In this document: positions 2,133 through 51,534 of the stretch, one piece after another | Numbering within the stretch: position 1 is the stretch's first letter | Layout: the number at the start of each line of letters is the position of its first letter | NCBI GenBank assembly: GCA_035221665.1 | Contig: CM069174.1 | Location: forward strand, 10,912,001 to 10,976,000 | Origin: Okamejei kenojei | Lineage: Eukaryota | Reading direction: 5' to 3' | DNA length: 64,000 nucleotides | Notes under the pieces: model-generated | What the model was told of the DNA's origin: nothing | Database searches by the model: none | The model's input: the letters and a program-made list of their open reading frames with translations, nothing else | Made by a program: the position numbers and the translations under genes

Positions 2133-2799
2133 AGTTAAAGCATGAATGATAATCCTGTAACTTTGATGAAAGTGCATGGCACATTCTGCCTAAAAGGTGG
2201 TGATTAAATCCAGAAACACGATGAGGATGCAACTGTTGAGGGCTTTCTCGTTGGCCTCCACAGCCATGGTTGTAGAGAGTTGACTTGTTCTTCTACAAAC
2301 CATCTGCCTAATATCTCCTTTTCAGGCACCAGGAGAGGTTGCACAAGGTGTCAGGCCACGTGTGGGGGTGAGATGCTCCTGAGCTGTAATTATTGGTAAA
2401 TCTACCTATAGAGAAGTAAGGTAGACTTGATGCCTACCAAGGTGTAATGTGTCCCTGTGTGCTACGATCACTGCCAGCCAACAAAAGCTTTGAAGTCTGC
2501 ATCCAACAGGAAAATTGATCGCCCCCCAATGCAAGCAGTCTATCCAATTTGGCAACATTAGCTTTGTATTATTGCGTCAAAATATCAAGTTGCATGATGT
2601 TGTTGGTGAGAGAATGCTGCTCTGCACTTCTCTCAGTTTTGCCAATATGCTGCGAATCTCAACTGAAAGCACCGCTCGCTCCATGCAACTATGCAATGAT
2701 TCTGCTCCTATGTGAATGGATTGATGCTGCTTGTTTGCTGCTAGTTGCACCAAATGTCCTTTCAGTCCCAACTGAAGGCAGGCTCAGTAGAAGGTTAGA

Positions 2800-2970
2800 A
2801 AGAAGAAATTGCAGATGCTGGGATCTTGCATAGAACACTAAGTGCTGGAGTAACTCAAGTTGCTCAAGCTGCATCTTCGGAGGACATGTCTAGGCAACCT
2901 TTTGGAGTGGGACCTTTCTTCAGCCTCCAGAGATGCTGCCTGACCTGCCGAGTTACTTCAGCACTTTGTG
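2800..2970. mobile_element. Penelope-derived palindromic element (degenerate)
   Basis: gaaattgcagatgctgg...tgctggagtaactca...cccttcttcag-like...ctccagagatgctgcctgacctgccgagttacttcagcac: inverted arms of the window-wide family. Confidence 0.65.
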
Positions 2971-3054
2971 TATTCAGTAGAAGGTTAGCTGGGAACTGCC
3001 TCATCACGATGCACAGGCAGGCAACCTCTTACTCCTTCCTTTCCTGCCTCATGT

Positions 3055-6000
3055 ATCGTGAAATTACTGCTTCTAGATTTCCCTCTCCACCGAGGCTGCC
3101 TAACTTGCTGAATATTTCCAGCAATATTATTGTTTTTGCTTCACATTTTCAGCATCAGTTTTTCCTTTCTGATGTTACAATGGAAATTACTGCTTCTGAT
3201 AATTTATGGGGGACAGACAAGAAATGGGTAATGATATCACCTGGGAATATAAACTGCAAATGACTGCTTATATTTTATGTTCTTAAAGCTGGAAATTAGT
3301 GTTCAGATATTATGCAATATAGACTGAAAATTATTTCCATTTTTTTTCTGGATGTGCATGGGAAATCATTGCTTCTGACAGTTGATGGACTATAATGTGG
3401 AAATGAATCTTCTTGATATTTTATAGATGATTACCAAGAAATTATTGCTTCAGATTCTTTATGAAGCAGACCTGATACTTTATGAACTAGTAACTAGGAA
3501 TAATTGCTTCTGATACATTATGGGCTTTAAAGGAAAATAAATGCTTCTGAATTTTGTTTGGAATTTACTGTTTATGATATTTTCTGGACTAAGGACAAGA
3601 AAATACTGCTGCTATTTTGTAGAGCAGAAAGAGAAAATTTCTCCTTCCCACATTGCATATACTGCAGTCTGGAAATGACTACTTCGGGATCAGGCTTAGG
3701 GATCAAAAGTTGGAAATTACGCCTTGTATGTTTATGGTGAATCGACTTCCAATAAATGATTTACTTTAGAATGGAAATATTTCATGGCCTAACAACGAGA
3801 TTTTACCACTTCTGATCGAGGAAAGTTGTCCTTTGTTTATTTTAGGGACGAGATATGGGAATTTATTGATGACACATTCTTTGTGCAAAATAAAATACTG
3901 ATATTTAATAGACCAGAAACTACTCATTCTGATATTTTATGGCAGACACTGTTGATTCTGTTATGTTCTAGATTTTAAAGAGGAAATTTACGATGCGAAT
4001 CGAAGCACCAAATTAATGCCATTCACAGTTTAAAGACTAAAAACAGGACATTAATGCTTCTGATATTTTATGGACTAAAGCCTTAAAATGATTGCTTTTG
4101 GTATTTCCTGGCCTGCTGCCTGGAAATAGCTGCTTCTGAGGTGTGCAGACTGTATCCAGCAAATTACTGATTTACCATCCGTACACTATAGACTAGAAAT
4201 TCCTGCTGCTGATAATTTATGGAGTAATGATTAGAAACTGCTGCTTCTGATATTTTATGGACTCAAAACTGGAAATGATGGCTTCTGACACGTAATGGAT
4301 GTTAAATGGGAAATAACTGCCTTTTTTTTGGACTCTAAAGAAATATTGCTTCTGATATTTTATAGACTAAATTATTTAGTTGGAAAAAAGACATCTGATC
4401 ATTTATAAAGAATGGAAATTGAAGCTGCTGATTTTTTTAAGTTAATGGATTAATTGGAAATTGCTGCTTTTGATATTTTATGGATTAATTGCATTAAATG
4501 ACAAGAAATTAGAATTTGCCGTGTCTGACATTTTATGGAGTAAACATTGGAAATCTTCCCTCCCGATACTTTAAGGACTGAAGATAAGAAATTAATGCAC
4601 CTGATATTTTATGGAGTAGAGATTGGAAATTGGCTCTAGTAATAAACAGAGTCAAAAATGTTGAAATACTTTGTGAAATGTTTATGACCAACAATTGGAA
4701 TATTCTGTTCTTTCATTGACTAAAGATTGAAAATTGGCGCTCCTGACATTTAAAAAAACTAGGCATTGGAACTGACTGCTGCTGATATTATATGGACTGC
4801 TGTGTGGAATTTGCTGCTTCTGATGCCAAATGGATAATAAGAAGGAATTTGCCCCTTCGGATACTGCAGAGGTTACTGCTTCTGATCTGAGCTTTAACCA
4901 GAAATTTATGTTTCTAATATGTTATTGACAAAAGACGAGTGGAGACTGCTGATGTTTTATGGACTGAATTGCAAGTTCCTGCTGCTCATATTTTATGGAT
5001 CCCTGACTGTAAATAACTGCATCTGACATTTTGTGGATGATAGACCGGAATTAACTGCTCCCGATACGTGCTGGATAATTGACTGCAGTTTACTGTCTCT
5101 GATATTTTATGCTTTACAGAGAGAACATTACTTCAACTTGTGTTTTACCGATCACAGGACAGAAATGGATGCTTGTAGCATTTCCTGGACAATGCATGGA
5201 ATGTACTGCATCCAGCAATTCACAGACAATGGGTGGGAAATAGTTTCTGATGCTATACAGACTATAGATTACCCATTATGCAGTACAGATTGAACGAAAC
5301 GTTGAAATATTTTACCAACTCTACTGAAAATAATTGCTTCTGATCATTTATTGATCACAGACCAGAAATGACTGCTGTTGACATTGGATGGATGTTGACT
5401 TAGTACACGGGTGCTTCTGATATTGTGTGGACTGTTACTTGGAATTCCAAACTTCAATCCTAGGAATACCCTAAATGTGGAAATGTTTGTATTTTGTGGA
5501 CTGTCATTTGGAAATTAATACTTCAGACATTTCATGGACTATTATTGGACATTACTGTTTCAGGTCTTTTATGAACTTTGGATTGGGCATTACTGCTTTT
5601 CATACTTAATGGAAAATTACTTTCTGATATTACACAGAATGCACTCTATCAATAATTGTGTTTTTATATGTTATGTACTGCATACTGGACATTGTTTGTT
5701 CTGATATTTTACTAACTATGGAGTAGAAATTCCAGCTTCTGGTGTTCTATCTTCTATCTAGGGATCATACTTTATCAATTATTTCATGGAGAAGAAATCA
5801 CACCTTCAATTCTATCATGTTTTACAGAATGAACGTTAAAGACAATTAATTAGTTGACTGTAGATTGGAAATACTACCTCTGATAGCAGAAAGGTTTCTA
5901 AAATATACTCTGGAAATTACTACTGATATTTAATGGATGAGAAGCAGGAAATAACTCCTCCCGAAATGTTATGGGCTATAAACTGAAATTATTGCTTCTG

Positions 6001-7200
6001 ATATTTTATAGATGAAGGACTCCAAGAAATTACTGGTGTGATATTTTATCAGCTATCGACTGGAAGTTACTGCTTTTGATATTATGTGCTACAGCCTGAA
6101 CATGCTGTTTTTGTAAGGTACTTTTAAGGAAAATACTATATTGGATTTTTTTATGCGCAAGGTAGAAACAGCTTGGGATATTTTATGGACTTTAGATTAC
6201 AAATAACTGCCTGAGATTTTATGGATTACAGACTGTCAATTACTGCTTCAAATGTTTTCTGAATGTGACTAAATATTCTGTTTCTGTTATTTCGGAAAAT
6301 GTTAGGCTCCTGATACTTAATGGGCTAATGGCTTGCATATAATTTATTTTGAATGTGCAATAATGAGATACGTCAGAGATATCATGGGGTCTACACTGGA
6401 AACTCCCGCTTGTAATATTTTATGGGCAATCAGCAGAAAGTAATTGCTTATTTTAATTTAGGTAAACAATGTGGACATTGTTACTTCTGATATTTTATTT
6501 GCAGTAATCTGCAAATTACAAATTTTAATAGGCTATTGATTGGAGGTTACTGTTCTCTATATTTTCTATATTATAGGCTAGAAGTTACTGCATATAAGGT
6601 ACCTCAAACAGAAACGTACCACACGGTATTTGATGCAACCCAGATTAGCAATTACGTCTGCTATTTTATGGACTATAAGCAAGAAATTACCACATCTTAA
6701 GCAAAAAGACCTGTAGTTGCCGGAAATGTTCGGATTCTTGCTGCTGCTGATTAAAAATTACCCTGCTGATATTTAAAATGGAAATGGTTGCTTCTGATTT
6801 TTGAATGTTGTAATCTAGTGTGAACTACTTTGTGGACAAATGGCAGGAAATCACAGGCTCTGACAATGGATGGACTATAAGCAGCATATGGCTGTTACTG
6901 ATATTTTAGTGACTGTGATAGACACAAAAAGCAGGAGTAACTCAGCGGGACAGGCAGCATCTCTGGAGAGAAGGAATGGGTGACGTTTCAGGTCGAGACC
7001 CTTCTTCAGCTTCAAATGAAAATTCTTCTTGGTCCAATAAGGGAAATTACTCTTTCTGACATATTTGCAGGAATCTGCAAGTTACTGCTTTTTATTTCAT
7101 TTTACAGAAAATTAATACTTTTGTTATTTTATAACTAAATAGCAAAATACTCCTGATAGTTTGTGAATTATAATCTACAAATAATTGTCACTGTTATGAT
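3055..7200. repeat. ~4-kb degenerate 38-bp minisatellite in GDF11 intron 1 (consensus ~ggaaattactgcttctgatattttatggactatagact)
   Basis: The core gcttctga recurs with period 38 (e.g. 4056, 4094, 4132). There are roughly a hundred diverged units, with a Penelope-derived half element inserted at ~6920-7010. Confidence 0.85.
6920..7010 (-). mobile_element. Penelope-derived terminus with intact hammerhead-like core
   Basis: Minus strand of 6982-7009 reads CUGAAGA-A-GGGU-CUCG-ACCU-GAAAC-GUC. Confidence 0.7.
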
Positions 7201-10419: not shown

Positions 10420-10580
10420 AAAAAATCAGAAAATGCTGGAAACACTTAGCAGGTCGGACAGCATCCGATGATGGAGAAACAATAAGGAGTTTATGACCTA
10501 AAGCGGCGGCTCTTTCTCTTCGCTACTGAGTGTTTCCAGCATTCTCTGTTTTCATTTCAGATTTCCAGCATCTGCAGTTT
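10420..10580. mobile_element. Older Penelope-derived palindromic element
   Basis: cagaaaatgctggaaacactt...gagtgtttccagcattctctg...ccagcatctgcag inverted arms. Confidence 0.55.
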
Positions 10581-10708
10581 CTGAGTTTCATTTTCTGCTT
10601 CAGTTTAAATCCGTACAGCCCCGTCCACTGGATAACATAAACGGCATTAAAATATAACGTCGAATTCCTCAGAGCATCAGTGAAAAAAATATCTCAGTGG
10701 GGTATTCT

Positions 10709-10921
10709 TTTTTGCATATCTTTCATTCATTGTTCTTTATCTCTCCACATCACCGTCTATATCTCTCGTTTCCCTGATCCCTGGCCAGTCTGAAGAAGGG
10801 TCTCGACCCAAAACGTCGCCTATCTCCTTCGCCTCTTAGATGCTGCTGCACCCGCTGAGTTTCTCCAGCCTTTTGTGTACCCTCGATTCTCCAGCATCTG
10901 CAGTTCCTTCTTTAACACAAC
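10709..10921 (+). mobile_element. 5'-truncated Penelope-like 3' end with 18-bp target-site duplication
   Basis: ATCTCAGTGGGGTATTCT at 10691-10708 and 10922-10939. The body matches the 3' region of the GIY-YIG-encoding remnant at 38245-38455 and has a hammerhead-like core at 10790-10817 (G12->A). Confidence 0.8.
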
Positions 10922-11074
10922 ATCTCAGTGGGGTATTCTGGTTTTAAACACAATTTGGGGCTCGAGTGACCATTGCCGCCTCCAGGAGAGGGGCTCCGTC
11001 ATTGAACCACATTATAGTAGTAGATCCAGTGACTGCTCCAAGTTCCTCTGTCCACTGTCTTTCTCCTCGGTAAA

Positions 11075-11400: not shown

Positions 11401-12499
11401 AAGGTAGACGAGGCAGGTAGCATAACAGCATTTAAAAGACATTTGATCAGCTACATGGATATGCAAGGTTTGGAGGGATATGGGCTACATGCAGGCAGGT
11501 GGGACTAACAATTTTGGTCAGCATGAGCAAGTTGGGCTGAAGGGCTTGTTTCTGTGCTGTTTGAATCTGTGACTCTTCTAAATAAAAGTTCAAGGATAGC
11601 AACAAGCGAGATTGGGAATTCATCCATAGACTATGAGAGGACTGTTCAACAATAGGATACTTCCTCCAGTACATCTGTACAAATTGGTCACTGGAGACAT
11701 GAGACATTTCCTAAACCTTCTGAGGAAGTCGAGGCATTGGTGTACTTTCTTGGCAAGTTGCAGTGGATCGAGGCTGTCTGGGAAGCTGGAGTTGATGTGC
11801 ACCATGTGCACGGTGCCAAAAAAAGTGCAAAGTCCGCAACGATGTAGGTTGGAAGATTGGGACTACATCCTTATGAGAGGCCCATTTAGTGATGCATCTT
11901 TTGCCGGGAGGGGGAGGGGATGAGAGGGAATGATCGGGATGTGAGTGATCCTTGATTACGTTTTTGTTGTTGGAGGAAAGGGAGAAGGGCAGAAGGTTTT
12001 AAGGAATATGGTTATAGGGACACGAATGGCGTGGAAACAATCCCACCCTGAACGTTCCAAGGGTCGTGAGTGAAGGGTTAACTTTGTTGAGGGGGAAGTA
12101 ATGACAGCTGATTTGGAGGAGGCAAAATCTGAGAAATCTGCAAATACTGTGGGTGAAGAAGGGAAGGTGAGTCGTTATCAGAGAAGTAATTCTCTCTTGT
12201 ATTTGATCTCTTTCGATCAGCTTCAACTCCTCAGAATTCCCCACACCAATCCCATTAAGTGATTTCCCCCCACCCCCCTCCCCCCTTCATAGTCAGAGAC
12301 CTGAGACCCTCTCCATAAATACCTTTTCAACATTCCCCTCACCTCTTGTATTTTTTTGTTCAATGGTTCTTTGATTCCTGGGACACAGGCAGCAGCAACT
12401 GAGTTGTGTCACTCTGTGGATTCAGACTGTGCAGATCCTGCCATCTACTGGCCATTGCTAGTATTTCAGACCAACTATTTTAGATTCTGCAGCAGTGAA

Positions 12500-12675
12500 T
12501 GAAGCAGCATCTCTGGAGAAGGTTGCTAGGTACCGTTTAGGGTCAGGAAGTCTACAAAAGGGTCCCAACCCGAAATGTCATCCAATCCACGTTCTCCGGA
12601 GATACTGCCTGACCCACTGAGTGACTCCAGCACTTTGTCATTTTTTTGTAAACCAGCATCTGCAATTCCTTGTTT
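12500..12675. mobile_element. Penelope-derived palindromic element (degenerate)
   Basis: gcagcatctctggagaa ... gggtcccaacccgaaatgtca ... ctccggagatactgcc ... ccagcatctgcaattcc. Confidence 0.65.
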
Positions 12676-14799: not shown

Positions 14800-14910
14800 C
14801 CTGAAGGGTCCCAATCTGAAACGTCACCTACGTATTCCAGAGATGCTGCCACACCCGCTAAGTTACTCCAGCACTTTGTCTCCTCTTGTGCGAACCAGCA
14901 TCTGCAGTTA
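14800..14910 (+). mobile_element. Penelope-derived terminus
   Basis: cctgaagggtcccaatctgaaacgtcacc...ccagagatgctgcc...accagcatctgcagtt. Confidence 0.65.
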
Positions 14911-15149
14911 CTTGGGATGGTATAGATTTCCAAATATGTATTCGGGAAATCGGGAGCGATGGAGACAGTGCAGGAAATTGGAGCTGAAATGTGATCAGCC
15001 ATTATCTGGATGAATGGTTCCTTCCTGCTGCTTTATTTTATTTTTAATGTAAATGTGCACAATAAAATCCCAGAAATGACATTGACATAAATGAGCAGAT
15101 AATGTGCTTTAATGATTGAGGGAGTCGCAGCTCTTGGGCAATTCCACTT

Positions 15150-15350: not shown

Positions 15351-15974
15351 TCGGTATTCCATTCCCTGGTCCCGACATCCTTCACCTTGACAGGCAGGAA
15401 ATCTTAAAGAAAATGTTATTTATGTACAGAGCAGACTGGGGTGAGTGCAGCTGCATTCCTATCGCATGTAGTTGGGGGATTTGGCAAATTGTTGCCAATG
15501 CCTGGAATACCTAGCAACGGGACGCAGTTTCTACCTGTCTCGTTTATTCCATCTTCACACCTGCTAGTGTTGAATTATTGCATTGTTTTTCATATTGTTT
15601 GCAACTTCAGACAATGTTTTCCACCGATAACCGAGTGACTGTCTGGAGCTGTCCGCCTTTTGTGGAGCCACACGGGAACTGGTGGAGGCCATTCAGCCAC
15701 GGGCCTGTCTATCGTTTGGGTTGATCTGCAACTCATCCTTGTTCATGTGCCTTTGCTCTGTAGCCCCTGGTGTCTTCAACCAGTTCTGGCATTTCCATGC
15801 TACCCCAGTAATCACTGCTCTTTGTGGGGGCGAGCTGTAGAATTCTGACACTACAACAATGTTTCTTGGTTCAATCCTTGAATTTTGCAATGAATTTTCA
15901 GTTTTCTCTGGATTACCACACCAGAGAAATTGTTCTGCTTTTGTTTATTGCTTCAAACACCCCGGTTAGAATTG

Positions 15975-16178
15975 TGCAGGGAGGAACTGCAGATGCTGGT
16001 TTAAATCGAAGACGGACACAAAAGACTGGAGTAACTCAGTGGGTCAGGCAGCATCTCTGGAGCAAAGGAATAGGGGACGTTTCAGTCAGAAGAAGGGTCT
16101 CGATCTGAAATGTCACCTATTCCTTTTCTCCAGAGATGCCGCCTGACCCGATGAGTTACTCCAGTATTTTGTGTCCGA
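15975..16178. mobile_element. Penelope-derived palindromic element with ~14-bp imperfect TSD
   Basis: acccggttagaatt (15959) / accctggttagaact (16178) flank inverted arms. Confidence 0.75.
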
Positions 16179-17864
16179 CCCTGGTTAGAACTGCCTTCCA
16201 TCACAGAATCATAGATATTTATAACATTAAAGAGGGACACCACTCATCCTGCCCGACAATCTTCTGCAGTGGATGTGAAGAGCAAAATGCCCTGCCTTGA
16301 GTGGAGTGGTAAACACTCTGTCGCTGTTAATCTATCTGTGAACTTTCTCTACCAACTATGTCGCCCACAAAGTTTGTAATGAAATTCTGGCTGTTTCAGT
16401 TACCAATATTAGCTTTAAATCCACATTTATTTAAATATACTTTCATGTAAACTCTCAGTTGCTATAATGAGATTCAAACTCGAGTAGCTAGATCTCTAGT
16501 GAATTCTGACTGCTGGTCTGGTAATTTAACCACAGCTACTGTAACCACACTTTCTAGTGGGTGCACAGATGCTGTAGAGAGACCATGTGGATAGCCTATG
16601 TGGACACATTGCAGTCATCTTTCTCCTATGAGATGACCTGCTTGTTCACAAGGCAATCCCTTGTGCTGTTGCCAACATCAGTGCAACTGTACTAAGGGGT
16701 GGCTTAACAGTGGGGAAGTGGGGTACTGTTGGTACGAGTCAATGTACTGTGCCATTCAGGGTAGCTTGATTCATTTAGTTCATGCACGGAGGGGGAATAA
16801 ACTGGAGGAAAATTACAACAGGTCTTTCTCATGCTGTGGTGAAGAATGGAGGCCCAGCAGCAGAACACCATCCTGCCCTTCTTGGCTGTGAAGTGCCCTG
16901 TACACATGAAGAGGAGGGAAGCGGGGTGCCTATGGAGGGGTACGTGTAATGGCACGTGTAAGAGAGGCTCAGCACCTCCTCTTGATGCCAAATCTAAAAT
17001 GGAATTGCATCTTGCTACCATCTGAGGCTTGTGGAGATCTGAGCACTGTAATATTAAGGGGCTCACCTTTTCTGGGAGCCCATCTGTTTACATGAAAGAA
17101 ATGGAAGGAAATTCCTCATGCAGATTGCTTCTGCTGGAGTTTTTCCTAAAGGACATCTCTGGAAAGATCAAGGTTGAGAGGAGGAATCCCTTGTTTAACA
17201 GGAGAACTACATTCTCTTAATGCAAGGCCAAATATAATGGAACACCCAGGGAGTCCAAGAGTTGCATCTGCACTGTTGACACTATTATTTAAGTACATCG
17301 AAAAAATGTGAAACATTTCAGCATCAAAGCAGATGCTAAAATATTTTTACAATGTTTCCTTAAACAATGCCAAAATATGTTTTCAGACACTGCGTGATAT
17401 CGGCTCAAGCCAGGCATTTGAAGAATTGTTTCCTACTGACCATAAGCGATTGTTGGCTACCTGCGTCCCAGCCCATTCCAAGGACTTGACCTGAATGGAG
17501 TGGTTGCACCAGCAGGAAGGACTCTTTATCCCAGTAAGGAAGTTTCCCCAGTAGATGTCTTTAAAGCCATGGTAGGGTTTGTGCGGGCTCACTGTAGACA
17601 CGATGCTTTCACCTGTGGGGAAGACCAGAACCCAAGGTTGTAAAGATACGATCAGTGATGATTGTAACATGGCATTCTGGACAGCAGAGAGAATGTGAGG
17701 GTGGCTCCCATGCGGAAGAGTTTAGGTAAACAGCAGAGAAACGTGTAAGAGGAAGCTAGATAAAGACACAAATGATAGAAGGATGTGGCGGTGAGGTAGA
17801 TGGAGAGAGATGGGTGGAGTATGAATACCAGGATAGATAAATTGGGCCAAATGGACGTCTGTGC

Positions 17865-18132: not shown

Positions 18133-18156
18133 TCACTAAGGCAAAGACACCTTAGT

Positions 18157-18360
18157 AAGAAGGAACTGCAGATGCGGGTGTAAACCGAAGACAGACGATG
18201 CTGGAGTAACTCAGCGGGCCAGTCAGCATCTGTGGAGAGAAGGAATGGCTGACGTTTCAGGTCGCGACCCTTCTTCAGACTGTCTTCATAGACAGCCATT
18301 CCTTCCCTCCACAGATGCTGCCTGACCCGCTGAGTCACTCCAGCACTCTGCGTCTATCTT
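18157..18360. mobile_element. Penelope-derived palindromic element
   Basis: Inverted arms; minus-strand core CUGAAGA-A-GGGU-CGCG-ACCU-GAAAC-GUC at 18251-18278. Confidence 0.75.
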
Positions 18361-18419
18361 ACATGGAAGTTCATTTGGAGGGCGTAACTTAAAAATAGAG
18401 AGCATTGTTGGTCAGGGTA

Positions 18420-21510: not shown

Positions 21511-21523
21511 TTCTAGTAGTGGG

Positions 21524-21998: not shown

Positions 21999-22044
21999 GC
22001 TGCTCTGTACACATTGGCAAGCCAGTTAAGAGCCAGGAGTTACA

Positions 22045-22215
22045 AAGAACTGCAGATGTTTGTTTAAACAATAAGACACAAAGCGCTGGAGTAATTTAGT
22101 GACCAGGCAGCATCTCTGGAGAACATGGATAGGGTGCTTCGGGTCACCACACCTATCCATGTTCTCCAGAGATGCTGCCTGATCCACTGAATTTCTCCTG
22201 CACTTTGTGTCCTTT
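22045..22215. mobile_element. Penelope-derived palindromic element
   Basis: gaactgcagatg...ggcagcatctctggagaacatggatagg / cctatccatgttctccagagatgctgcc inverted arms. Confidence 0.7.
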
Positions 22216-22417
22216 TTAAAAAATGCTGTGAGTGCTGCTTTGTTGCTCGTGTGTGTCAACACTGGGAAAACACTGCCTTTGGTAGGATATTAATGAAATC
22301 ACTTCCTTTCTGCATGAGAGCTGCGGAAGCCATTGGCAGACTGTAAGTGGAGTGCACACAAAGAGGAGCATGTTCTTTTTTGTTTGAGCTTTGCCCTTCT
22401 TTAAAGTAGGAGACAGG

Positions 22418-22591: not shown

Positions 22592-22867
22592 GTGAGTGTA
22601 GGAGACTGGGCAGGGGTGGGCTGGGAGGGTTAGGTATTGGAATGGATGCTCTATAAGGCTGCTGCCATTCTGGCCACCTTTTAGGAATAACATCAAAACG
22701 GCTGACAGCGCGTTTGTGATACAAGTGTTCAGTGTGTGGAGCTGTTCTGAACCTATGAACTACTGCTATAATCAGTCATTGGAACTCCTTCCTATCTTTG
22801 GTTACAGGTGAACAAAGGACTAGCCAAGTCCTCTTGTGATAGTGTGTGACATAGAATCAGTCCACTG

Positions 22868-23081
22868 ATGGTACACAAAATGTTGGAGAAACTCAGCGGG
22901 TGCAGCAGCATCTATGGAGCGAAGGAGATAGGCAACGTTTCGGGCCGAAACCCTTCTTCAGACGGTTTCGGCCCGAAACGTTGCCTATCTCCTTCGCTCC
23001 ATAGATGCCGCTGCACCCGCTGAGTTTCTCTAGCATTTTGTGTACCATCAATTTTCCAGCATCTGCAGTTCCTTCTTTAAC
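22868..23081. mobile_element. Penelope-derived palindromic element with 13-bp TSD
   Basis: Near-perfect ~87-bp arms 22866-22952 / 22964-23050; TSD aatcagtcca(c/t)tg at 22855 and 23082. Confidence 0.8.
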
Positions 23082-23448
23082 AATCAGTCCATTGTTCCTG
23101 CTTCCTCCCCATATCCCTTGATTCTGTTAGCCCCAAGAGCTATATCTAACTCTCTTGAATACATCCAGTGAATTGGCCTCCACTGCCTTCTGTGGCAGAG
23201 AATTCCACAGATATAGAAGATTGTGTGTGTGTACATTTGTTGCATATTGGGTCAAGCTTCTCTGTAACGTCCACCACCTCCCCTTCCCTCACATGTCAGA
23301 GATGGTGAAGGTTTCTTAGCCGTGTTTTATTGCTCAAGGGTGTAGAGATTGTGCCCACTCCATAAATATATGCACTAGGTGGTTTCAAGATGTCTGTTCT
23401 ACCCACCACAAAACTGTCACCAGTGTTGTAACGAGTGTCTGTTTGTAG

Positions 23449-26254: not shown

Positions 26255-26410
26255 AAACTGCAGATGCTGGGAATCTGAAATAACAGAAAATGCTGAAAAA
26301 AACTCAGCAGCTCAGGCAGCATCTGTGAAAAGAGGAACCTGAAGAAGGTTGCAAATGTTTATTTTTCCTCAGAGATGCTGCCAGACCAGCTGAGTGTCCA
26401 ACACATTTTA
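26255..26410. mobile_element. Penelope-derived palindromic element (old)
   Basis: aactgcagatgctggg...ctcaggcagcatctgtg...ctgaagaagg...cagagatgctgccagaccagctgagt. Confidence 0.55.
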
Positions 26411-28499: not shown

Positions 28500-29019
28500 T
28501 ATATGGTTGCTGAGTGTATCATATTTAAAAACCAAATCCCTTTCTTTACAAAAATACACTTTGGTAATGCAATATGCATTTATTTTTACTCCCCCAAAGG
28601 TTCTGGCTAACAAGAAATTGTGTTGGGATCTGCAAGCCTTTTTACAATCAAAAGACTGGAGGTGCATCGAATAATGCAGTATTAAATTTGCCCATGGCCA
28701 CCTCGAAATCAGCCCTAACTTCAACAGTAATATTCAACAGATCTTTGCTAACAGCGCTTCTATATCTAACAATCTAGCGATTAAAGGCAACAAGATGCAA
28801 ATTATTTGGATTTCTCAAGACAACTAAAGGTGTGGTGCGTGGGGGGGGGGTATTTTAACAAGATAGAACTATAATTTAAGAGGTTATTTAATTTAAAACA
28901 TCATCAAATGGAAAATAAAATGAGAAAATGTTGTTGAACAAAATCAGCAAATCAGAACCTCAGTGGATTCTCCCACAGTGTGCCTCTTCCAAGCAGAACC
29001 ACCCACCAAGTTTACTGTT

Positions 29020-29195
29020 TAAGAAAGAACTGCAGATGCTGGAAAAATCGAAGGTAGACAAAAATGCTGGAGAAACTCAGCGGGTGAGGCAGCATCTATG
29101 GAGTGAAGGAATAGGTGACGTCTGAGGAAGGCTCTCGACCCGAAACGTCACCTATTCCTTTGCTCCACAGATGCTGCCTCACCCGTTGAGTTGCT
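29020..29195. mobile_element. Penelope-derived palindromic element with 17-bp TSD
   Basis: CCACCAAGTTTACTGTT at 29003-29019 and 29196-29212; core CUGAGGA-A-GGCU-CUCG-ACCC-GAAAC-GUC at 29122-29149. Confidence 0.8.
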
Positions 29196-30738
29196 CCACC
29201 AAGTTTACTGTTGGAGGCTAGCAAGGTTTCTGGTAGCTTGAATGCATGATAGGGGCACTTGTTTGAGGCATTTTTTGAAATCCAGGATTTCAGGCATACA
29301 TTCAACTATCTACATTGACCTAGCTTTCCTGAACAATCTCAAGGTAGTGCATCAGGATCTCAGGTGATTTAGATCTTGTCAAGTTGAAAATAGCAATACA
29401 AATTGCAGAGGTCATCCTGGAGTGTACACTATCCTCTTTGAGTATACAATGCTCTCTTGCTAAATTCTAAGCCCGTACCATGCACACAGAAGGGCATGGA
29501 ATAGTCAACATGTATTCAAATTCAATTCCCTACTGTCTGAGAATTTATTTTATGCATGGGTCACAGATTTTTGCAATTTTTTGGGTTGAATCAGTAGTAG
29601 ACTTATAGGGTAGCACTCTATACATGTATACACAATATAGTAAGAATTTATTAAGTGGACATGTTTTGGCCAAGTTCCCAGAGAAAGCGTTGCCAACAAA
29701 GTATACATACTGAATCTATCAATAAATACACTTCCCATTCCCACCCTATGGAGCAGTGAACACATGATGCAAAGGTTGCACTGCACAAATTCCAGTGTTA
29801 ACCCCTGGGTACCTCATTTGGGTTGCAAGGCACTTCATAGTTGCGTTCAACTTTATGGTGAATTCTGCAGACATCAATGTAAGATATATACTTGCGCCAT
29901 TACTATGAAATAAATGTTCAACTTTGTTGAGGAATTTTGTTAAAGCCAATTAAGGAGCTGAAGGAGAGGGGGACAGAGAGAGAGGAGAAGACATTACAAC
30001 AATAAGAGACAGCAGAATAAAATGAGCACAACTCCATTTTTCTATTTATGGTAGAGCTATCAAAGGTTCATATTTTTTTATAAGATTTGTGTACGATTTC
30101 TGCAGCACAATAATTTTCCAATAAATATTTAATTTTTTTAAAGTTACAAAAAGAAATTGTATCCCATCTCTAAATCACAATAAGTGTGGCGATTTTACAC
30201 ATTTAACGCAAATTATTTTCTGGTTCCTTTCTAAAAAAAAAGTGCTTTCTTTTAAAAAGAAAATACCTACCATACGGTGGAAATCAGGCCAGCAGCCAAG
30301 CACAATGTTTAGTCTGTTCCTTTTGCATTGCAAACTTTTCCCCATTAAAAATGGTCAGGAGGGTGTATGACCTTGGGGAAAGGAAGAGCCGAGAAACGGA
30401 ACATTTCAGGAGGAGGTAGCCGAGCATGGAAGAATAATAAAGCATTTTAAAAAGTCACCTACCGGGTAATTTTTCATCTACCTGTGGAAACCAGAAATTA
30501 ATTTGTCTTTACCTAACAAATTATAAAGTAAAGCCCTCTTAAGATCACTTTAGTTGCTACTGTACATCCAAATTAAAATGTTAAAACAAGGTACAGTTAA
30601 AGTCTATTCATTCAATTCAATAAAAGAGGACTTTTATTTGTCTTTGTTCTAATCTAGAATCAGGTTTTGACCTTCTCAGTCAGGCTGCTATCTAGCTGAC
30701 TGAGGTGATCGCTGAGGTTTGTTTTAGCGCTTTAAGGC

Positions 30739-33685: not shown

Positions 33686-33880
33686 ACAAGGAACTGCAGA
33701 TGCTGACTTACCAAAAAGACACAAAGTGCTGGAGCAACTGAACAGGTCAGGCAGCAACTGTGGAGAACAGGGAAAGGCTGTGTATTGGGTCTGAAGAAGG
33801 GTCCCGACACAAAACATTGCCCATTCATGTTCTCCAGGGATGGTGCTGACCCGCTGAGTTACTCCAGCATTTTATGTCTT
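33686..33880. mobile_element. Penelope-derived palindromic element
   Basis: aaggaactgcagatgctg...tctgaagaagggtcccgacacaaaac...cccgctgagttactccagcattt. Confidence 0.7.
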
Positions 33881-34170
33881 TTTTTCTCCCTCTTCTCTCT
33901 AAACTAAACTTGGATGGATGCATTTGAGTGAGCACAGTTAAATCATTCCTATGTTGAAAAGATGTTCCATTGTAATTGAATGAAGAACCCAAGGGTACCT
34001 GACAACTGTTAAATTCTATTCTAAGAGTTGGCTCCAGGGAGAAGAGGTGCGGGTGAGCGGGGAGGGGAGGAGGAGAGGGAAAACCCGATCAGGGAGACTA
34101 AAAACAAAACAAAAACCACGCAGCTATACACTTATTTTAACAGATTAGCAAAAGATAAATGAGCACAAAC

Positions 34171-37904: not shown

Positions 37905-38455
37905 AAAACCAGCCACCTTACTTTGCTGAACACCTTTGCTCAGTCAGCCTAGACTGACCTGATCTCCTGGCTGCTAAACAATTTAATTCCCCTTCCCATT
38001 CCCACACTGATCTATCTGTCCTGGGTCTCCTTGATTGTCAAAGTGAGGCTAAACGCAACTTGGAGGAACAGCATCTCATATTTTGCTTGGGTAGCTTACA
38101 GCCCAGTGGTATAAGTATTGATTTCTTTAACTTTAAGTAACCCCAGCATTCCCTCTCTCTCCATCCCTCCCCCACCCAAGTCACACCAGCTTCTCGTTTT
38201 CACCCAACAAACAGCTAACAATGGACGGTTTCCGTTATCATCATTACTTTTTTGCATATCTTTCATTCATTGCTCTTTATCTCTCTACATCATCATCTAT
38301 ATCTCATGTTTCCCTTTCCCCTGACTAGTCTGAAGGTCTTGACCCGAAATGTCACCCATTCCTTCTTTCCAGAGATGCTGTCTGTCCCGCTGAGTTATTC
38401 CATTTTTTTGTGTCAATCTTTGGTTTAAACCAGCATCTGCAGTTCTTTCTTACAC
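37905..38455 (+). mobile_element. Penelope-like element 3' remnant (end of GIY-YIG domain + terminal repeat)
   Basis: FAEHL...FNSPSH...RNLEEQHLIFCLGSLQPSG, followed by the tctgaag..gacccgaaatgtcacc...ccagcatctgcagtt terminus. Confidence 0.8.
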
Positions 38456-41218
38456 CTTACTTTTAACCTTGAGCTGCAACAGAAAATTCTAATCTTCGAA
38501 AGTTGTTATAGGATCCTGGATAAATACTCGCTTGGTACCTTGAACAATAGCAAATATGCTGCTGAGACACATTATAGTGAGCTGGTAGAAGCTGAATTAA
38601 TTGAGTACTCATGCCAGCCATGATATAAGGTTGCCACGATTCTCACTGTAAACTAATAAAATACATTGGTTTTCTTTGGAAGCCACATATCATTTCATGG
38701 GACAGGACCTAGCTGTTGTCAAGTTTGCATCAGTAACTTGCTACTGATCAGCACCTAGCCAATTAAACTCCCTTCTGCACGCATGCTATGAAAAAGATAC
38801 AATCGCAATTTGCCACAAATAAACTTTATATCCCATATGCTTAATAAAATCTTTCCCTCTCTCCCACATATACATAAAGCATTTTCAGAAAAAAGGTGCA
38901 TTACTATTTATTGTATGCCATGCACAGAACTGACTTAGAAGACAACATCTACACTTCTCATGTGTCTCTCTATGATGGTCGCCGACAAGAATGGAAGATA
39001 TAATCACACAAGGAAAAGCACTGCGTTAAAGGACAAGCTGATTATTATTACAGATGATTTAAATAATATAAATCAACTTCACAAAATATGCAGAACTAAT
39101 TTTACAAAAGAACCTGGACATGAACAGGGAAAGCAAGGAGTGCATTCACCACACTGCTGCATCCCAGACCAACATTGCTGCAGGCTGGAAAAGACCTACA
39201 ATCTGGGTGCAGCAATCTCAAGCTGCAACCTAATCCTAGCATCCAGTCAGCCTGCTCAGAGCCTTGTGAGTAGATTGCAGAAGCATAATATGTACGAGAA
39301 TGCTGTATTAGTTGCATTTTGTTTCTTCAAATGTTAGTGCAAGTGTTCAGAAGAGTGTGAGCTTTACGATGGTCTAATATGCAGAGAATGCTGGCAGGAG
39401 GGTTTTGTTTTTAAAAGACAACTCTAGTTAAAACCTGATAACAAACCATTGCTGCAATAATGTAAAATTAGCTGAAACAGCAAAAGCAAAAGTCCACCAT
39501 CAAAATCACCAGAAAGATGTGATAGTGGGTGTGAAAAAAAACCGGCTCATCTTATTTAATATTTTGAAACAGTAAATAACCATTGACCCAGAATTGCTGA
39601 GAAGACAGAGTTCAATGCTCTTGGCGTTACTAGTGAGCAATTGCCTCAGTAACATGTGGTAATTGAGGGCTACCCAGTAAATTGCGAACTGCCACGTTGC
39701 TGAACTATTTGCTTTGCTCCACCTTGCAAAAACAGCCACTGATTGCCATCCTTCAAATATGTTTCAAGGTATTTGCTGCATTTGCGCCGGTAAAACAAAC
39801 ATAATTTATTGCAAAATCTATGATACATAATGATGCAAGCACCTTGTGAGATTTATCTTCTTGCAAACGCAAATTCCTTTCAACCCAGAGAGAAAACAAC
39901 TAAAATTGGATTATCATTCCTGCAGGCAGTAAACTGTTCCCAGGTTTTGTTTTTAATTTAAATGCAGATCTTGTATTTTTCTCAGACAATCAAAACTGCA
40001 GATGCTAGAAATTTAAAATAAAATCAGAAAATGTTGGAAATAGTCAGCAGATCAGGCCACGTTTGTGGGAAGAGAAAGTTCAGGTCAAAGACTTCACCTG
40101 TTAAAGGGTCCTTGACGTGAAATGTTAGCTCTTTTACTTTCCCTGTCTCTTTTCAATCTCTCTTAATCCATACATTCCACACTTCTCTTTTTGCACTTAA
40201 TTTGAAACTAATTCCCCCATTTCCTTTACCATTATACCTATTAAATCTTATGCTAAGAAATCTGCTTGTTCTGTCATTCACTAAGGTCCCTGATGCCCCA
40301 TTATCCTTGTCAAGCAGTTATCAGCAAACATTCCCAGCAATTTGCAACGTAAAATAGTAAGCTGCGAGGGTGAAAGAAAAAATCTAACAAATGAGGCACA
40401 TCGCCAGATGCTCAGGCCCACTAAATTCTAGGCCATTACACAGCAATTCAAGGCAAAATGCATCATTAAGTGTTGTTTTGTGGATTAATGTACTTTATCC
40501 ACATATAAATAACGTGTTTCAATAGAACACACTAAATATTCACAGAACATTGGCTTGAATTGTCCTATTTATTACTTACTACTCCACAACGGCACAGTAA
40601 GTGGTTGGAGTTTTGAGATTTGACAGGAAATGCCCCATCAGTTTTTCTGCTATCTTTCAGTTCCCAGTCACGACTGCAGAGTTGGTTTAGAGCAACGCCT
40701 AAGACACCACACTGCCTACCTCTTGCCAAGGAACCCAACACTCTATGACAGCACAGTGAACATCAAATTCAGTGCTCCTGTGTGAATGGGAAGTGAAAAC
40801 AGACACTTTCCGGCTTGATGTCCAGTTTGCCGTTTGCTTCTGATAGGCCTCGAGAGATGCTTCTGCTTTAAACAACACCAGATGCACTTCGAGTTGTTGC
40901 TACATAGGGGGTGCTAGCACACTGTAAGACTGGAGCAATTCCCATAGGTTTAGAAAATAAAGATTGTTAAATAACAGCATAAGGGAAACAATGTTTGTAA
41001 TTATCTGTACAAAATATGTTATCAGGCAAAAAATGAGCAACAACAAAACAATTTGCTAGGATGCCAGGCCCCAATTATTACCAACCAAACTCCCTCTGGA
41101 AACACATAAATGTAACCACCAGATAGAGGTTGAAAGGCCCTTTGAGTTCACTGCCACTGTCAATAAACTAAAGGTTCAATAGCACAGAAGGAATATAAGT
41201 GTAGAGGAATTTATTTAA

Positions 41219-43253: not shown

Positions 43254-43537
43254 TGCAGCTGAATCTCAAGTTACTGGTAATCATGTTTGTTCCATCTTCA
43301 CCTGCAATCAACAAGATATAATCAATGTTTTTAATTCTTCCATTGAAGTAAATACATATAGAATTTCAAATCTTGCAACAATGACATGGTAATAATTAAT
43401 AAAAGCCATCTCACAAATCAATACATTGCATCTATGCACAGTTATTTCCAGATCTACAAATACATAAATAGCCTACCTGCCTTAATGCAAGTCATGAATA
43501 ACATTACAGACACACATCTCTATAAATAACTTCACAC

Positions 43538-43955
43538 CTGCAGATACTGGAATCTTGAACAAAAAAAACAAAGTGCTGGAGGACTCTGAAGGATCCCAAT
43601 CCAAAATGTCACTTATCCATGTCCTCCAGAGATGCTGCCTGACCCAATAGACAATAGGTGCAGGAGTAAGCCATTCGGCCCTTCGAGCCAGCACCGCCAT
43701 TCAATATGATCATGGCTGATCATCCCTAATCTGTACCCCGTTCCTGCCCTCCCCATATCCCAACTCCACTATTTTTAAGAGCCCGATCTAGCTCTCTTGA
43801 AAGTATCCAGAGAACCTGCCTCCACCGCCCACTGAGGCAGATAATTCCATAGACTCACCACTCTCTGTGAGAAAAAGTGTTTCCTCGTCTCCGTTCTAAA
43901 TGGCTTACTCCTTATTCTTACCCACTGAGTTACTCCTGCACTTGGTGTCTTTTTT
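43538..43955. mobile_element. Penelope-derived element with nested CR1 3' fragment (43647-43920, minus)
   Basis: The arm sequence gatgctgcctgaccca|...|cccactgagttactcc is interrupted by the CR1 tail; short duplication accca at both junctions. Confidence 0.7.
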
Positions 43956-44989
43956 TATTCACACCTTAAGCTTGCTTACAATCATTATATTATAATGAAG
44001 ACTGCAATTACCTCTCCAGATCAATGATTCACCGTCAGAGAGAAACGTAACAGTATCCAGGCCAACCAATGCTTTCTTACCCATCTCACGACAATTCCCT
44101 CAATTTTCTTCTTATCTATAGTGAGAACATGTGTTAATAAGCCATAAAGACGTTAAGTTCCGGGATCAGTCTCTGAGAGTGAAAAACGAATGAAGGGATG
44201 GTGGTATCACTGGAACTGTCTATCAGCACAGCTGAGCACATTTGTTTTTCACTCTCAGAGGCAGAGAGATCCCAGAACTTATCATCTTTATGGCTACAGG
44301 CTGCAATGAAGTAGCTTATTAACACACATTACACAAGAGGTCAGAATTTAAAACACACACACAAATTAAGTTTGGATTGTGCAAGAAAATATCAAATTAG
44401 AACGTGCCTTTTCTCTAACGTTTCCAACTGTTTTCCAACATATACCTGGCCAAGATGTACAACTGGGATTGGAGGCTGCAGCACTGGGGAGATTTTTTTA
44501 AACTAGATCTCATTGCAGTTCGCATGTAGACACTGAATCCTGGAGAATGGCAGGAAAATATTTCTCCAGTGAATATGAGGCCTGATAAATTAATTTGCTG
44601 CCATTAAATTAACGATTTAAAAAGGATGCAAAATGGTATATGATGGATAAAAGCTCCAGATCTTAGAAAAAAAACAACCAAATTGATAAAATGGTGAACT
44701 AGGTAAATTGTCAGTACGTTCTTAGATTTATTCCCATTTCAGTGCTGAGAATATCTTCCAATGGATTCTGCAAATGTACCTGTGGACTAGGGGATAGAAA
44801 ATGTGATCCCCCAGAGAGCAGGAGGGACGGGCAGAGAAGAGGGCGAGAAGGGCGGGCAGGGAGAGTGCATGAATTCCAAGAAGAGAAGAATTAAATTCAA
44901 ATTGGCTTGGAGGAAGGAGTCTCAGATGGTGGTGAAGGGGTGTTTTTTCCGATAGGAGTGCCCACTCCCCCACTAAACACAATGTTTAA

Positions 44990-45433: not shown

Positions 45434-46804
45434 CGAGCCAAATAGGATTAGCCCAATATGTCAACATGACCGGCATGGGAATATGGGGAGAATAAAAACA
45501 TGGGATTAATGTAAGATTAGTATAAATTGGTGGTTGATGGACAGCACAGACACGGTGGACAGAAGGGCCTGTTTCAGTGCTGTATCTCTCTGTGACTCCA
45601 TGTGATCAGCCGTAGTATGCACCCTGCCACTCCTATTGAACTTGGTTAATGAAACAGGGGCGCTGAATCAGAGCTCTCAATGGTCTGTGGCTTTAATTTC
45701 TTCACACAGGTTGTGGTTCTTTGGAATTTTCCACCTTGCAAGGTGCGAATGCACAGTGGTTAACCGTATTTAAGCTTGAGATTTATTTTGGCACAAAAGG
45801 AAATTGGGCACTGGGAGAGAAAACAAAAGTATATGATGACATTTAATGGTAGTCAAGGGACTGCATAGCTTACAATAGCTTTAGTTTATGTTCTTAACGT
45901 GCCACGGTGTATTTAATTGCCGACCACTGTATTAATGGTGTGCATTAGTACCTCAGTGCACAGGATGAATTTCCAGGAACAAGAATGTTAATGAAATCAG
46001 TGCAAACGAGCCATTATGTACACAGAGGCATGTTACCGATAGTGCTCCGACACCTGGAAAATTCTTCAGCTTCTCTTGGTGCCACCACAGGTACATTTCT
46101 CAACCAAGTCAATTCACGGCCCATTTCAGCCTTGACGCCACAATATAGACCAATATTTCAGTGCTGCATGGCAGAAACAGTATCTTTCAGATAACATATT
46201 CAATCAAAGTAGAGGCACAAAAGATCTCAAAACCACTGGTTAAAGAGCAGGAGAGATTTTCCAGTACCCTGATCAATATTTACCATTCAAACAAGGTCGC
46301 TGTAAAATGTTATTTTCTTGCGCACAACTTGGATGTTGTGATTCCTGAATAACTGTAGTGGCATCTCTATTGAAATCTGAATGAGAGTTTTGACCAAAAA
46401 CGTCACTTATCTATGTTCTCCAGAGATGTTCCCTGACCTGCTGAGTTACTCCAGCATTTTGTGCCCTTTTGTGGCATTTCTAAAGTTTGCTTGTGTACTC
46501 TACTATGGCCACCCTGCAGAGCACAGATTTCCTATAGTATTCTTGGCCTTCCCATCCAAACACTCACAGTAAACACACTCTGTACTTTAAAAAAGGCATC
46601 CACTCAGGCTGCACGCTGTTGTGCTGGGAATCTGGCATGAAATGCTGCCTGCCCTGCTGCTGTTCTTGGGCTGGAACTCTGATGCAAATCCCTGCCCTCC
46701 TGTTGGCACTCCTGCTCCAGTGCCCAAGATGGAGAGGCTGCCTCTCCATACTGCGCCTACTCTCAATTCCTCCGTCTCCACCGCAGCTGCTCCCCAGATG
46801 ACAG

Positions 46805-46970
46805 AGGAAGGAACCGAGGATGCTGGTTTATACCGAAGATAGACAGAGTGCTGGAGTACACAGTGGGTCAGACAGCATCGCTGGAGAAAAGACTAATTCT
46901 CTTTACAAAAGGCTTTTCTCCCGAGATGCTGCTTGACCTGCTGAGTTGCTCCAGCATTTTGTGTCTATCC
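46805..46970. mobile_element. Penelope-derived palindromic element abutting the PLE remnant
   Basis: gatagacagagtgctggag...cagcatcgctggag / ctcccgagatgctg...ctccagcattttgtgtctatc. Confidence 0.65.
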
Positions 46971-46974
46971 CCAG

Positions 46975-48345
46975 ATAGAGGGGTTCCATACCAGGACATT
47001 CAAGATGTCCATATTCTTCAGGAAACATGGGTTCTCCCCTATTGTCACAGATGTGGCCCTCACACTCATCTCATGCGTCCCTTCGTTCTGCTCTCGCTCC
47101 CCCTCCCACTGGACGCAACCAGGATAGTTTCCCTGGTCCTCACCTTTCACCCCATCTGCCTCCACCTCAATTACATTATCCTCTGACTCCCAACACCTCC
47201 TACGCGATCACACCACTAATCACATCTTCCCATCTCCATCCCTTTCCACCTTCCATAAAGACCACTCCCTCTGCAACTACTTGGTTCACCGATCCCATCC
47301 CTTCCCAACCAAACCACCCCCTCTCCAGGTACTTTCCCCTGCAACCGCAGGAGATGCAACGCATGTCGTTATACCTCCTCCCTCGACTCCATCCAGGGAC
47401 ACTGACAGTCCTTTCAGGTGTGACATAGGTTCACATCTACCTTCTCTAAACTCATTTACTACACCCGGTGTTCATGATGTGGGCTCCTGTACATCGTTGA
47501 GACAAAACGTAGACTCAGCGACCGTTTTGCTGAACACTTACATTTGGTCTGCCGAGGTCTACAGGATCTCCCGGTTGTTAATCATTTCAACTCCCCTTCC
47601 CACACTGTCCATTCTGTCTTGGGCCTCCTCCATTGCCAGAGTGAGGCCACATGCAAATTGGAGGAACAGCACCTCACATTTCGCCTGGGTAGCTTATAAC
47701 CCAGTGGTTTGAACAATTAATTCTCTAATTTTAAGTAACTTCTACAAGCAGTCCACTCTCCTTCCCCTTTACCCCGCCCTAGTTGTTTAACCAGTTCCAC
47801 AGTTCACATTATATTCCTCTGGCGATCACACCTTCCCAAGCCAACAATGGACTTACCAGGGCACCACCCTTGCCTGAGGTAATTTGGTGACAGCCCTGAT
47901 TTGTCGTGGTCTTTTCTTGTCTCCAGCTCTTCCCCCCTCCCCGCCTCAGTCTGAAGAAAGGACCCGACCCGAAGCAGATCACCTATCCTTTTTCTCCAGA
48001 GATGCTGCCTGATCTGCTGAATTACTCCAGCACTTTCTGTCTATCTTTGGTATAATGACTCCAGCATGTTCTGTCTATCTTTGGTATCTTTTTCAAGAGT
48101 CAAGTCAAGAGAGTTCTGTGGAATTCTCTGCCTCAGAGGGCGGTGGATGCCGTTCTCTGGATACTTTCAAGAGAGAGCTTGATAGGGCTCTTAAAGATAG
48201 CAGAGTCAGGGATATGCGGAGAAGGCAGGAACGGGGTACTGATTGGGGATGATCAGCCATGATCACATTGAATGGCGGTGCTGGATCAAAGGGCCGAATG
48301 GTCTACTGCGTCTATTGTCTATAAACCAGCATCTATAGTTCTTTG
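46975..48345 (+). mobile_element. Degenerate Penelope-like retroelement: RT-linker + GIY-YIG endonuclease + terminal repeat; CR1 3' fragment nested at ~48108-48322
   Basis: Frameshifted motifs LVLTFHP, GTFPCNRRRCN, LLYIVETKRRL (YIGET-like), RFAEHL, HFNSP, KLEEQHLTFRLGSL*PSGLN; then the tctgaagaaaggacccgacccgaa terminus. Confidence 0.85.
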
Positions 48346-49630: not shown

Positions 49631-49762
49631 GAAGGTAGACAAAAATGCTGGAGAAACTCTGCGGGTGAGGCAGCATCTATGAAGCGAAGGAATAGGTGAC
49701 GTTTCGGGTCGAGTCCCTTCTTCAGACTGATGAAGTCTGAAGCTCGACCCGAAACGTCACCT
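49631..49762. mobile_element. Penelope-derived element with hammerhead-like core
   Basis: Minus strand of 49698-49725 reads CUGAAGA-A-GGGA-CUCG-ACCC-GAAAC-GUC; partial inverted copy follows. Confidence 0.7.
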
Positions 49763-51200: not shown

Positions 51201-51534
51201 CAAGGAATTCATTGCAAAATATTATTAGGCAACTCTCATGTAAATATTGCAAAATATTATTAGACAACTCATTTAAATCTCCGAGCAGGCCACTTTATTT
51301 AAAGTGCACTTGCTGCCACGTTTAAATATGCATTCCTGATGGATCTTACAATCAACATAACATGCCACACACACACACACCCCCCCCCCCCCCCAAGGAT
51401 TCTCCTCCTAATTCCACACGGCCCTCTTTACTTTTGATTTACATGTCTCGGAAGTTACAAGTTTCTACTCCCAGTCAAGTGCTTTCCCGAGGTCATCATT
51501 GTAACCTTTAAGGACCAACTCGGGATGAGTAATG

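Follow-up and report, generated by a model that had tools for sequence, protein, structure and literature searches.

Short palindromes as paired back-to-back ends of Penelope-like elements, most likely made during insertion

Genes, repeats, and palindromes of the window

The window (the whole stretch of DNA analysed, 64 kb, 42% GC) carries minus-strand exons at 7938-8546 (TGF-beta propeptide), 31869-43265 (DnaJ and Jiv90), and 58628-58942 (NEMP), which we take to be GDF11-, DNAJC14-, and NEMP1-like. A LINE-type reverse transcriptase (RT) is also present, and copies of a LINE family lie at 161-583, 12923-14174, 21523-21988, 43645-43920, 48115-48322, and 55307-55633, the younger ones being about 90% identical. 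Three inverted-repeat pairs (28291-28485, 44140-44295, and 53439-53784), unrelated to the unit described below, are possibly true MITEs. Another unrelated structure, at 59322-59819, is a 290-bp foldback with 28-bp minisatellite arms, its centre being duplicated at about 59322-59395. The 57-nt G-rich run at 41219-41275 is possibly a sequencing or assembly artefact.

A unit of ~130 nt makes up 6.0% of the window (48 profile matches, 3,813 bp). Its profile was built from 19 hand-picked arms and matches were accepted at E<0.2; the reversed-window control gives a best E of 0.49, versus 48 matches below 0.2 in the forward window. The matches resolve into 17 pairs, whose arms always stand head-to-head, and nine single-arm loci, in agreement with the "around twenty" inverted-arm elements counted in an earlier note on this DNA. 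One of the 48 (43630-43674) is weak and spans an arm/LINE junction, and this match makes the sole tail-to-tail adjacency in the window. Insertions made of the terminal unit alone (pLTR-only, see below) occur about once per 2.5 kb, with palindromes of 150-220 bp.

The element at 22855-23094 displays the complete anatomy between two target-site duplications (TSDs); model positions are those of the unit profile:

22855..22867, plus strand: left TSD, 10 bp exact or 13 bp with one mismatch, its last bases overlapping the arm end
22866..22963, minus strand: tail-less pLTR arm, model 4-97, with a complete hammerhead-type core
22932..22963, minus strand: minimal type-I hammerhead motif, with 2-bp helix I, CUGAAGA, unpaired A, 4-bp helix II, and GAAAC-GUU
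22964..23050, plus strand: opposite arm, starting inside helix II (model 15) and complementary to the left arm
23051..23079, plus strand: ~30-nt PLE "tail", on the 22964..23050 arm only
23082..23094, plus strand: right TSD, direct repeat of 22855..22867

The arms of this focal element (22866-22952 and 22964-23050) are 97% complementary across 87 nt, and its minus strand folds at -175.6 kcal/mol (z = -22). Its hammerhead is predicted to cut between 22934 and 22933 and, in the modelled fold, to be sequestered in the hairpin. The other loci are listed below, all pairs being head-to-head and given without strand:

2784..2988: pair, tail on left arm, 15-bp TSD
3083..3158, plus strand: degraded single arm, profile match
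6914..7010, minus strand: single tail-less arm, core residues intact, without helix I
10420..10583: pair belonging to a divergent subfamily, right arm with tail
10691..10939, plus strand: 5'-truncated PLE 3' end with ~80 nt of 3'UTR, unit, tail, and 18-bp TSD, of the focal palindrome's subfamily
12493..12675: pair, left arm truncated, tail unscorable
14802..14913, plus strand: single arm with tail, profile match
15959..16190: pair, tail left, 13-bp TSD (one mismatch), 4-nt central overlap
18155..18361: pair, left arm with tail and intact core, right arm from model 34, a predicted cleavage product
22043..22218: pair, tail left, right arm from model 33
26256..26407: divergent pair, tail left
29003..29212: pair with 17-bp TSD, tail left, core in the right arm, which is tail-less
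33687..33885: pair, tail left
37910..38455, plus strand: 5'-truncated PLE, with GIY-YIG C-terminal remnant (37922-38137), 3'UTR, and unit with tail
39994..40132: degraded pair, profile match
43531..43966: pair split by a LINE 3' end (43645-43920), candidate 9-bp TSD (p about 0.04)
46375..46473, plus strand: single tail-less arm, profile match
46757..47735, plus strand: decayed PLE ORF (RT thumb, Cys-rich linker, GIY-YIG), interrupted by the 46791..46976 palindrome
46791..46976: pair nested in the PLE ORF, 9-bp TSD backed by ORF homology on both sides
47947..48347, plus strand: 3' terminus of the 46757..47735 PLE, with a 34-bp duplication and a LINE fragment between unit and tail (48322-48347)
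49631..49764: pair, 5' boundary reached by both arms, right arm truncated
51524..51809: pair with internal deletion, about 100-bp insertion, and 13-bp TSD
52426..52570, plus strand: partial tandem of a short copy, which stops at model 33, followed by a nearly complete tailed arm
55754..55897: degraded pair, profile match
58901..59012, minus strand: single arm with tail, profile match
61982..62178: pair, tail left, 15-bp TSD

Two LINE copies interrupt PLE termini and thus postdate them. At 48020-48087, the 34-bp tandem duplication stands at the tail-less end position of the PLE terminus and is followed by the LINE fragment, then by the tail. A 44-nt perfect inverted duplicate of non-repeat sequence (14763-14806 and 15153-15196) adjoins the 5' end of the 14802 arm and shares its first bases; it may stem from template switching to host DNA close by, or from faulty assembly. 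Rfam returns 12 weak matches to microRNA precursor models, all below gathering score, of which ten lie entirely inside unit elements and the other two partly. Annotation pipelines can therefore misfile these palindromes.

Penelope origin, target sites, and arm anatomy

Judged by its sequence relationships, the unit is the terminus (pLTR) of an endonuclease-bearing Penelope-like element (PLE). It lies downstream, and in the same orientation, of ORF remnants with RT and GIY-YIG homology, and arms of the palindromes group with UTR- or ORF-linked termini, which bears out the Penelope origin put forward in the earlier note. The terminus was also said to sit directly downstream of GIY-YIG remnants; it is downstream, but the remnants end about 190-210 nt before the unit. 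The best named relative of the 47325-47735 remnant comes from the whale shark, which points to a cartilaginous fish as the probable source of the DNA; this protein has RVT_1 and GIY-YIG domains and matches at E 2e-40, and tblastn with it covers 46960-47735 and 37922-38137 (RT-thumb/GIY-YIG remnants). Pfam detects GIY-YIG only in this homolog and not in the decayed remnants of the window. The ORF has a Cys-rich linker between RT and endonuclease (EN), of a type shared by Neptune and Nematis, Neptune being a candidate clade, and tblastn with long relatives gives no match that would put an ORF N-terminus inside the unit. An origin as a tRNA-derived SINE was rejected, the unit aligning along its whole length to the PLE terminus; tRNA genes number 0 in the window and no tRNA-derived SINE head was found.

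A third copy, at 10709-10918, has about 80 nt of the same UTR as the ORF-linked copies. In a tree of 34 of the 48 arms (14 were too short and dropped), the focal arms group with the UTR-bearing 10786p (88% identity, UFBoot 100) and the 61996 and 6914 arms with the ORF-linked 38331p (87-88% identity, UFBoot 97), deeper nodes being weak. Since arms group with different UTR- or ORF-linked termini, the palindromes derive from several PLE subfamilies, not from one lineage. Reading 46807-48347 as one textbook insertion (inverted pLTR, pLTR, ORF, pLTR) was rejected because ORF homology continues to the left of the palindrome and no TSD flanks the whole.

The five direct repeats named in the earlier note are all present: 18 bp at 10691/10922, 17 bp at 29003/29196, 15 bp at 61982/62164, 13 bp with one mismatch at 15959/16178, and 10 bp exact or 13 bp with one mismatch at 22855/23082. 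The first is a genuine TSD, but what it flanks is a single arm and not a palindrome. A TSD score of at least 11 is reached at 9/25 loci, versus 0.9% of 2000 random intervals, in a test that is not blind, its boundaries having been chosen by eye after a first inspection of the repeats. Two of these nine loci (3083 and 52426) are doubtful, with repeats 8-24 nt off the ends, and 16/25 loci lack a significant TSD, which counts against the insertion model preferred below. Accepted lengths are 13, 13, 13, 15, 15, 17, and 18 bp, plus 9 bp at 46791/46968 and possibly at 43531/43958. The 46791/46968 repeat is independently supported, as this palindrome lies inside the PLE ORF and homology continues on both sides. 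The TSDs are thus real and variable (9-18 bp), with no fixed short length within the window; they are of the long retrotransposon type, as the earlier note held, and not those of a MITE.

The 3' ends of the arms are bimodal: 15 fall at model 96-102, 21 at 115-127, and none at 103-114. The ~30-nt tail is found on exactly one arm in all 11 automatically scorable pairs (0.5^11 = 0.0005), and in 13/13 when two pairs scored by eye are included. Four of the 17 pairs are unscorable, and one of them (12493) may keep a remnant on both arms, against the preferred model. At the other end, the start lies at model 3-7 in 19 arms, 1-4 nt ahead of the hammerhead core, a boundary at which the unit profile itself begins; two of these arms run on into 3'UTR, and the 38331 arm likewise extends into UTR. 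The remaining seventeen have this boundary in common and share no upstream sequence beyond (C)A. This boundary reads TCAGT, downstream of a pyrimidine tract. TCAGT resembles an initiator, and after such a tract it also resembles a splice acceptor. A start site, a splice acceptor, or an RT stop are the candidates for its nature; a splice-acceptor origin is disfavoured, there being no common upstream exon and the G of the AG being mostly kept.

Central junctions are different in all 17 pairs. Scored by eye, only 4/7 flush junctions show a 2-4 nt overlap (microhomology), and the arm reaching the 5' boundary is tail-less in eight pairs and tailed in three. Palindrome centres are deletion-prone, so that the variety of junctions may partly postdate insertion. 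In seven of the 12 measurable pairs, the identity between the two arms ranks first or close to first among all comparisons; in the other five, an arm resembles its partner no more than it does other copies, which also counts against the preferred model.

The hammerhead motif and its decay

The unit consensus harbors the minimal type-I hammerhead motif described in the earlier note, with CUGANGA, GAAA, and GUH boxes, an unpaired 9.1 base, and a palindromic 15.2-16.2. The statement that the centres repeatedly read as this core holds for the consensus but not for most copies: 14 of the 19 core-spanning arms are damaged, and all core residues are intact in five. A strict hammerhead descriptor finds five loci, versus 0 in 100 shuffles, and the motif is therefore not due to chance. 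Rfam gives no hammerhead match at E<=1, and a prokaryotic genome scan for the core gives 0 matches. Four arms (14802, 38331, 43587, and 55826) share a 3-nt deletion within the GAAGAAG core box that breaks the core, either by recurrent slippage or as members of a core-less subfamily.

The helix II variants GGGU-CUCG-ACCU (6982), GGGU-CGCG-ACCU (18251), and GGGU-UUCG-GCCC (22934) are present as listed in the earlier note, on the minus strand, the 6982 one in a single arm without helix I. They had been taken to keep stem II; they are single transitions to G-U wobbles, not above shuffles. Covariation, suggested as a check, is not apparent in the 18 arms, a small and neutrally decayed sample (78.3% paired versus 79.0% shuffled; double changes 1 versus 1.4). 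Both caveats of the note are confirmed: helix I is short (0-2 bp in the five intact copies), and folding indicates that the hairpin arms sequester the core. A longer helix I using upstream UTR was not found, by eye or by folding, in the three UTR-bearing copies.

In isolated arms, the hammerhead fold is 5.6-12.2 kcal/mol less stable than the minimum-energy structure, and in whole elements 6.3-40.4 kcal/mol. These energies leave out tertiary contacts and protein help, so that the ribozyme of a master PLE may work; self-cleavage by the inserted copies appears unlikely from the folding models. For a double-hammerhead dimer, the bare structure lies at -6.7 to +4.9 kcal/mol versus dimer minima of -26.6 to -40.1 kcal/mol, values that are not strictly comparable and make a weak test. 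PLE hammerhead dimers are the subject of a study by Lunse et al., as cited in the available part of PMC6765202. In the five intact arms, the purine-rich core (model 8-16) pairs with a downstream pyrimidine run (model 35-49), an alternative hairpin that, as modelled, would leave the ribozyme inactive.

Two partner arms begin at model 33-34 (18292 and 22150), and the short copy at 52426 ends at 33. Starts at the predicted cut site (2/15, P about 0.08) are not significant, and as a cleavage signal such ends are a lead only. In most arms the sequence continues across the cut site, which indicates uncleaved templates. The hammerhead of these elements is an inherited, mostly decayed passenger.

Origin of the palindromes and comparison with known systems

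The palindromes are most likely paired back-to-back PLE ends made during insertion. More specifically, the elements are probably short pLTR insertions, each palindrome being built at its own site by two-strand, two-start-site priming. The PLE protein would make a staggered cut at the target, and both target 3'-OH ends would prime reverse transcription on uncleaved PLE RNA, one starting at the distal (tail) and the other at the proximal internal start site. As priming would take place in the pLTR found at the RNA's 5' end, each cDNA would stop after just 100-130 nt. A head-to-head join between the two cDNA ends would follow, in many cases using 2-4 nt of microhomology and trimming one arm, and 3'-pLTR priming would yield the rarer UTR/ORF-bearing copies. 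The hammerhead would be carried along since it lies in the pLTR, and, once inserted and sequestered, would decay neutrally. A full PLE transcript and a short pLTR-only RNA are both compatible with this model as template.

Several of these steps have counterparts in vitro. According to the available part of PMC11167929, the PLE protein of Anolis cuts and extends both strands, and starts reverse transcription at two internal RNA sites bounding the genomic tail; it is a predicted dimer, and the RNA that it inserts is uncleaved. In the same source, start-site use shows no difference between the strands, which speaks against the model, and the ribozyme of Poseidon of Anolis carolinensis (PAc) cleaves only with protein. 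That 17 junctions from one 64-kb window leave room for many low-copy palindromic masters also speaks against it. A stronger version is conceivable, though doubtful: a dimeric RT-endonuclease would prime one RNA twice, obligatorily using both start sites, with master-free MITE-like hairpins, a large genomic fossil record, and a minority of arm ends at the cut site. If true, those arm ends (18292, 22150, and the 52426 copy) would be genomic evidence of cleavage in vivo by minimal PLE hammerheads, which is unproven.

Palindromes would still be PLE by-products, made one at a time, under fold-back self-priming, in which antisense pLTR RNA (or cDNA) acts as its own primer, the resulting hairpin is copied, and resolution by the endonuclease gives a one-sided tail. 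In the available parts of the sources, fold-back is proposed for head-to-head inverted pLTRs of Adineta vaga (PMC3846280) and EN-mediated resolution is held to account for the one-sided tail (PMC8557442); the uniqueness of the junctions and their central microhomology are accommodated as well. Snap-back of sense-derived cDNA, however, cannot put the tail only on the truncated arm, as in eight pairs, and fold-back of antisense RNA would call for an antisense transcript whose 3' end is fixed at model 3-7, with no sign of one here. Later work in vitro assigns the tail to a pair of RT start sites (PMC11167929, available part); this origin appears unlikely. Mobilisation of a MITE by a DNA transposase recognising the inverted arms would suit the size and the long inverted arms, and is nonetheless barely credible: besides the variable TSDs (9-18 bp), the ends are asymmetric, with a tail that has no inverted partner, single arms bear TSDs, the unit lies downstream of PLE ORFs, and no transposase family is found among the 43 stop-free frames of at least 100 aa in the window.

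The earlier note favored a retrozyme-like non-autonomous family. Under such a reading, a short hammerhead RNA or the whole palindrome would be transcribed from masters, self-processed, and retrotransposed by PLE proteins. The very high density (6% of the window), the presence of PLE body or UTR at only 3/26 loci, and the sharp 5' boundary, which also suits a short SINE-like master transcript, are in its favor, and retrozymes derived from pLTRs are reported in one chondrichthyan genome (bioRxiv 2026.07.22.740005, available part). Yet the window holds no tandem array of the unit, the sole partial tandem (52426-52570) has both cores damaged, and each palindrome strand has at most one core; on these grounds the reading fails. 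The damage to 14/19 cores with no covariation, a hammerhead fold 6-40 kcal/mol above the minimum, the sequence kept on both sides of the cut site by uncleaved templates, and the lack of any junction common to two pairs add to this, and such a family is quite improbable. More generally, the 17 different junctions and the grouping of arms with UTR/ORF-linked termini make a discrete non-autonomous palindromic family, on sequence grounds, disfavoured.

Under the preferred reading, insertion by two-strand priming, the palindromes would provide a countable record of an incompletely solved mechanism, PLE transposition steps after first-strand synthesis being unvalidated according to the available part of PMC11167929. 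At the density of this one window, by extrapolation, the whole genome would hold many thousands of pLTR-only palindromes, which would make it possible to count directly how often tails are coupled, how often junctions have microhomology, and how many arms end where the ribozyme cuts. They reveal that MITE look-alikes and long intronic hairpins can come from a retrotransposon; those in introns of the TGF-beta, DnaJ, and NEMP genes would form long double-stranded RNA. A literature search set apart from Repbase, Dfam, and subscription papers returned no account of abundant pLTR-only palindromes, cartilaginous fish included, or of a strict one-tail rule; given this scope, the family may already be catalogued.

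The palindromes are a compact variant of the known PLE insertion structure. They recall the twin-priming 5' inversions of L1, in which both target ends prime and the inverted junction shows microhomology, with long, variable TSDs. The two parts of an L1 inversion copy non-overlapping RNA segments, whereas here both arms copy the same segment, which results in a palindrome. Published precedents exist for inverted pLTRs, one-sided tails, solo pLTRs, and pLTR hammerheads (PMC3846280, PMC8557442, PMC4209133; this and the following comparisons draw on the available parts of the sources). Endonuclease-bearing PLEs such as Penelope of D. virilis and Pen2a of A. vaga likewise display a head-to-head inverted pLTR, a tail at one end (30-40 bp), a pLTR hammerhead (PMC3846280, PMC8557442, PMC2377424), an ORF with RT and C-terminal GIY-YIG, and a variable TSD (8-10 bp in A. 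vaga). In contrast, insertions of the window are mostly pLTR-only, 150-220 bp long, with no ORF between the arms and TSDs of up to 18 bp. Penelope of D. virilis possesses an internal promoter and an intron at this pLTR region (PMC2377424, PMC4209133).

With PAc, the elements share two classes of 3' ends about 30 nt apart, extension of both strands, and a hammerhead near the template's 5' end that is dispensable for insertion (PMC11167929). Unlike in PAc, the ORF of the window has the Neptune/Nematis-type Cys-rich linker (PMC8557442 for the linker) and no ORF start can be placed in the unit. The minimal hammerheads of metazoan PLEs (PMC4209133) have the same core boxes, unpaired base before helix II, G10.1-C11.1, and palindromic 15.2-16.2, with no loop 3. 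The unit differs from them by its helix I of 2 bp (as in a D. virilis variant) versus 4-5, its helix II of 4 bp versus 7-8, an A at N7 in most copies, and the absence of compensatory changes in the sample. Animal non-LTR retrozymes are similarly non-coding and PLE-related, with a type-I hammerhead motif and TSDs longer than 4 bp; they are head-to-tail tandems with circular RNA, whereas the elements of the window are head-to-head, with one core per strand (PMC7229834; bioRxiv 2026.07.22.740005).
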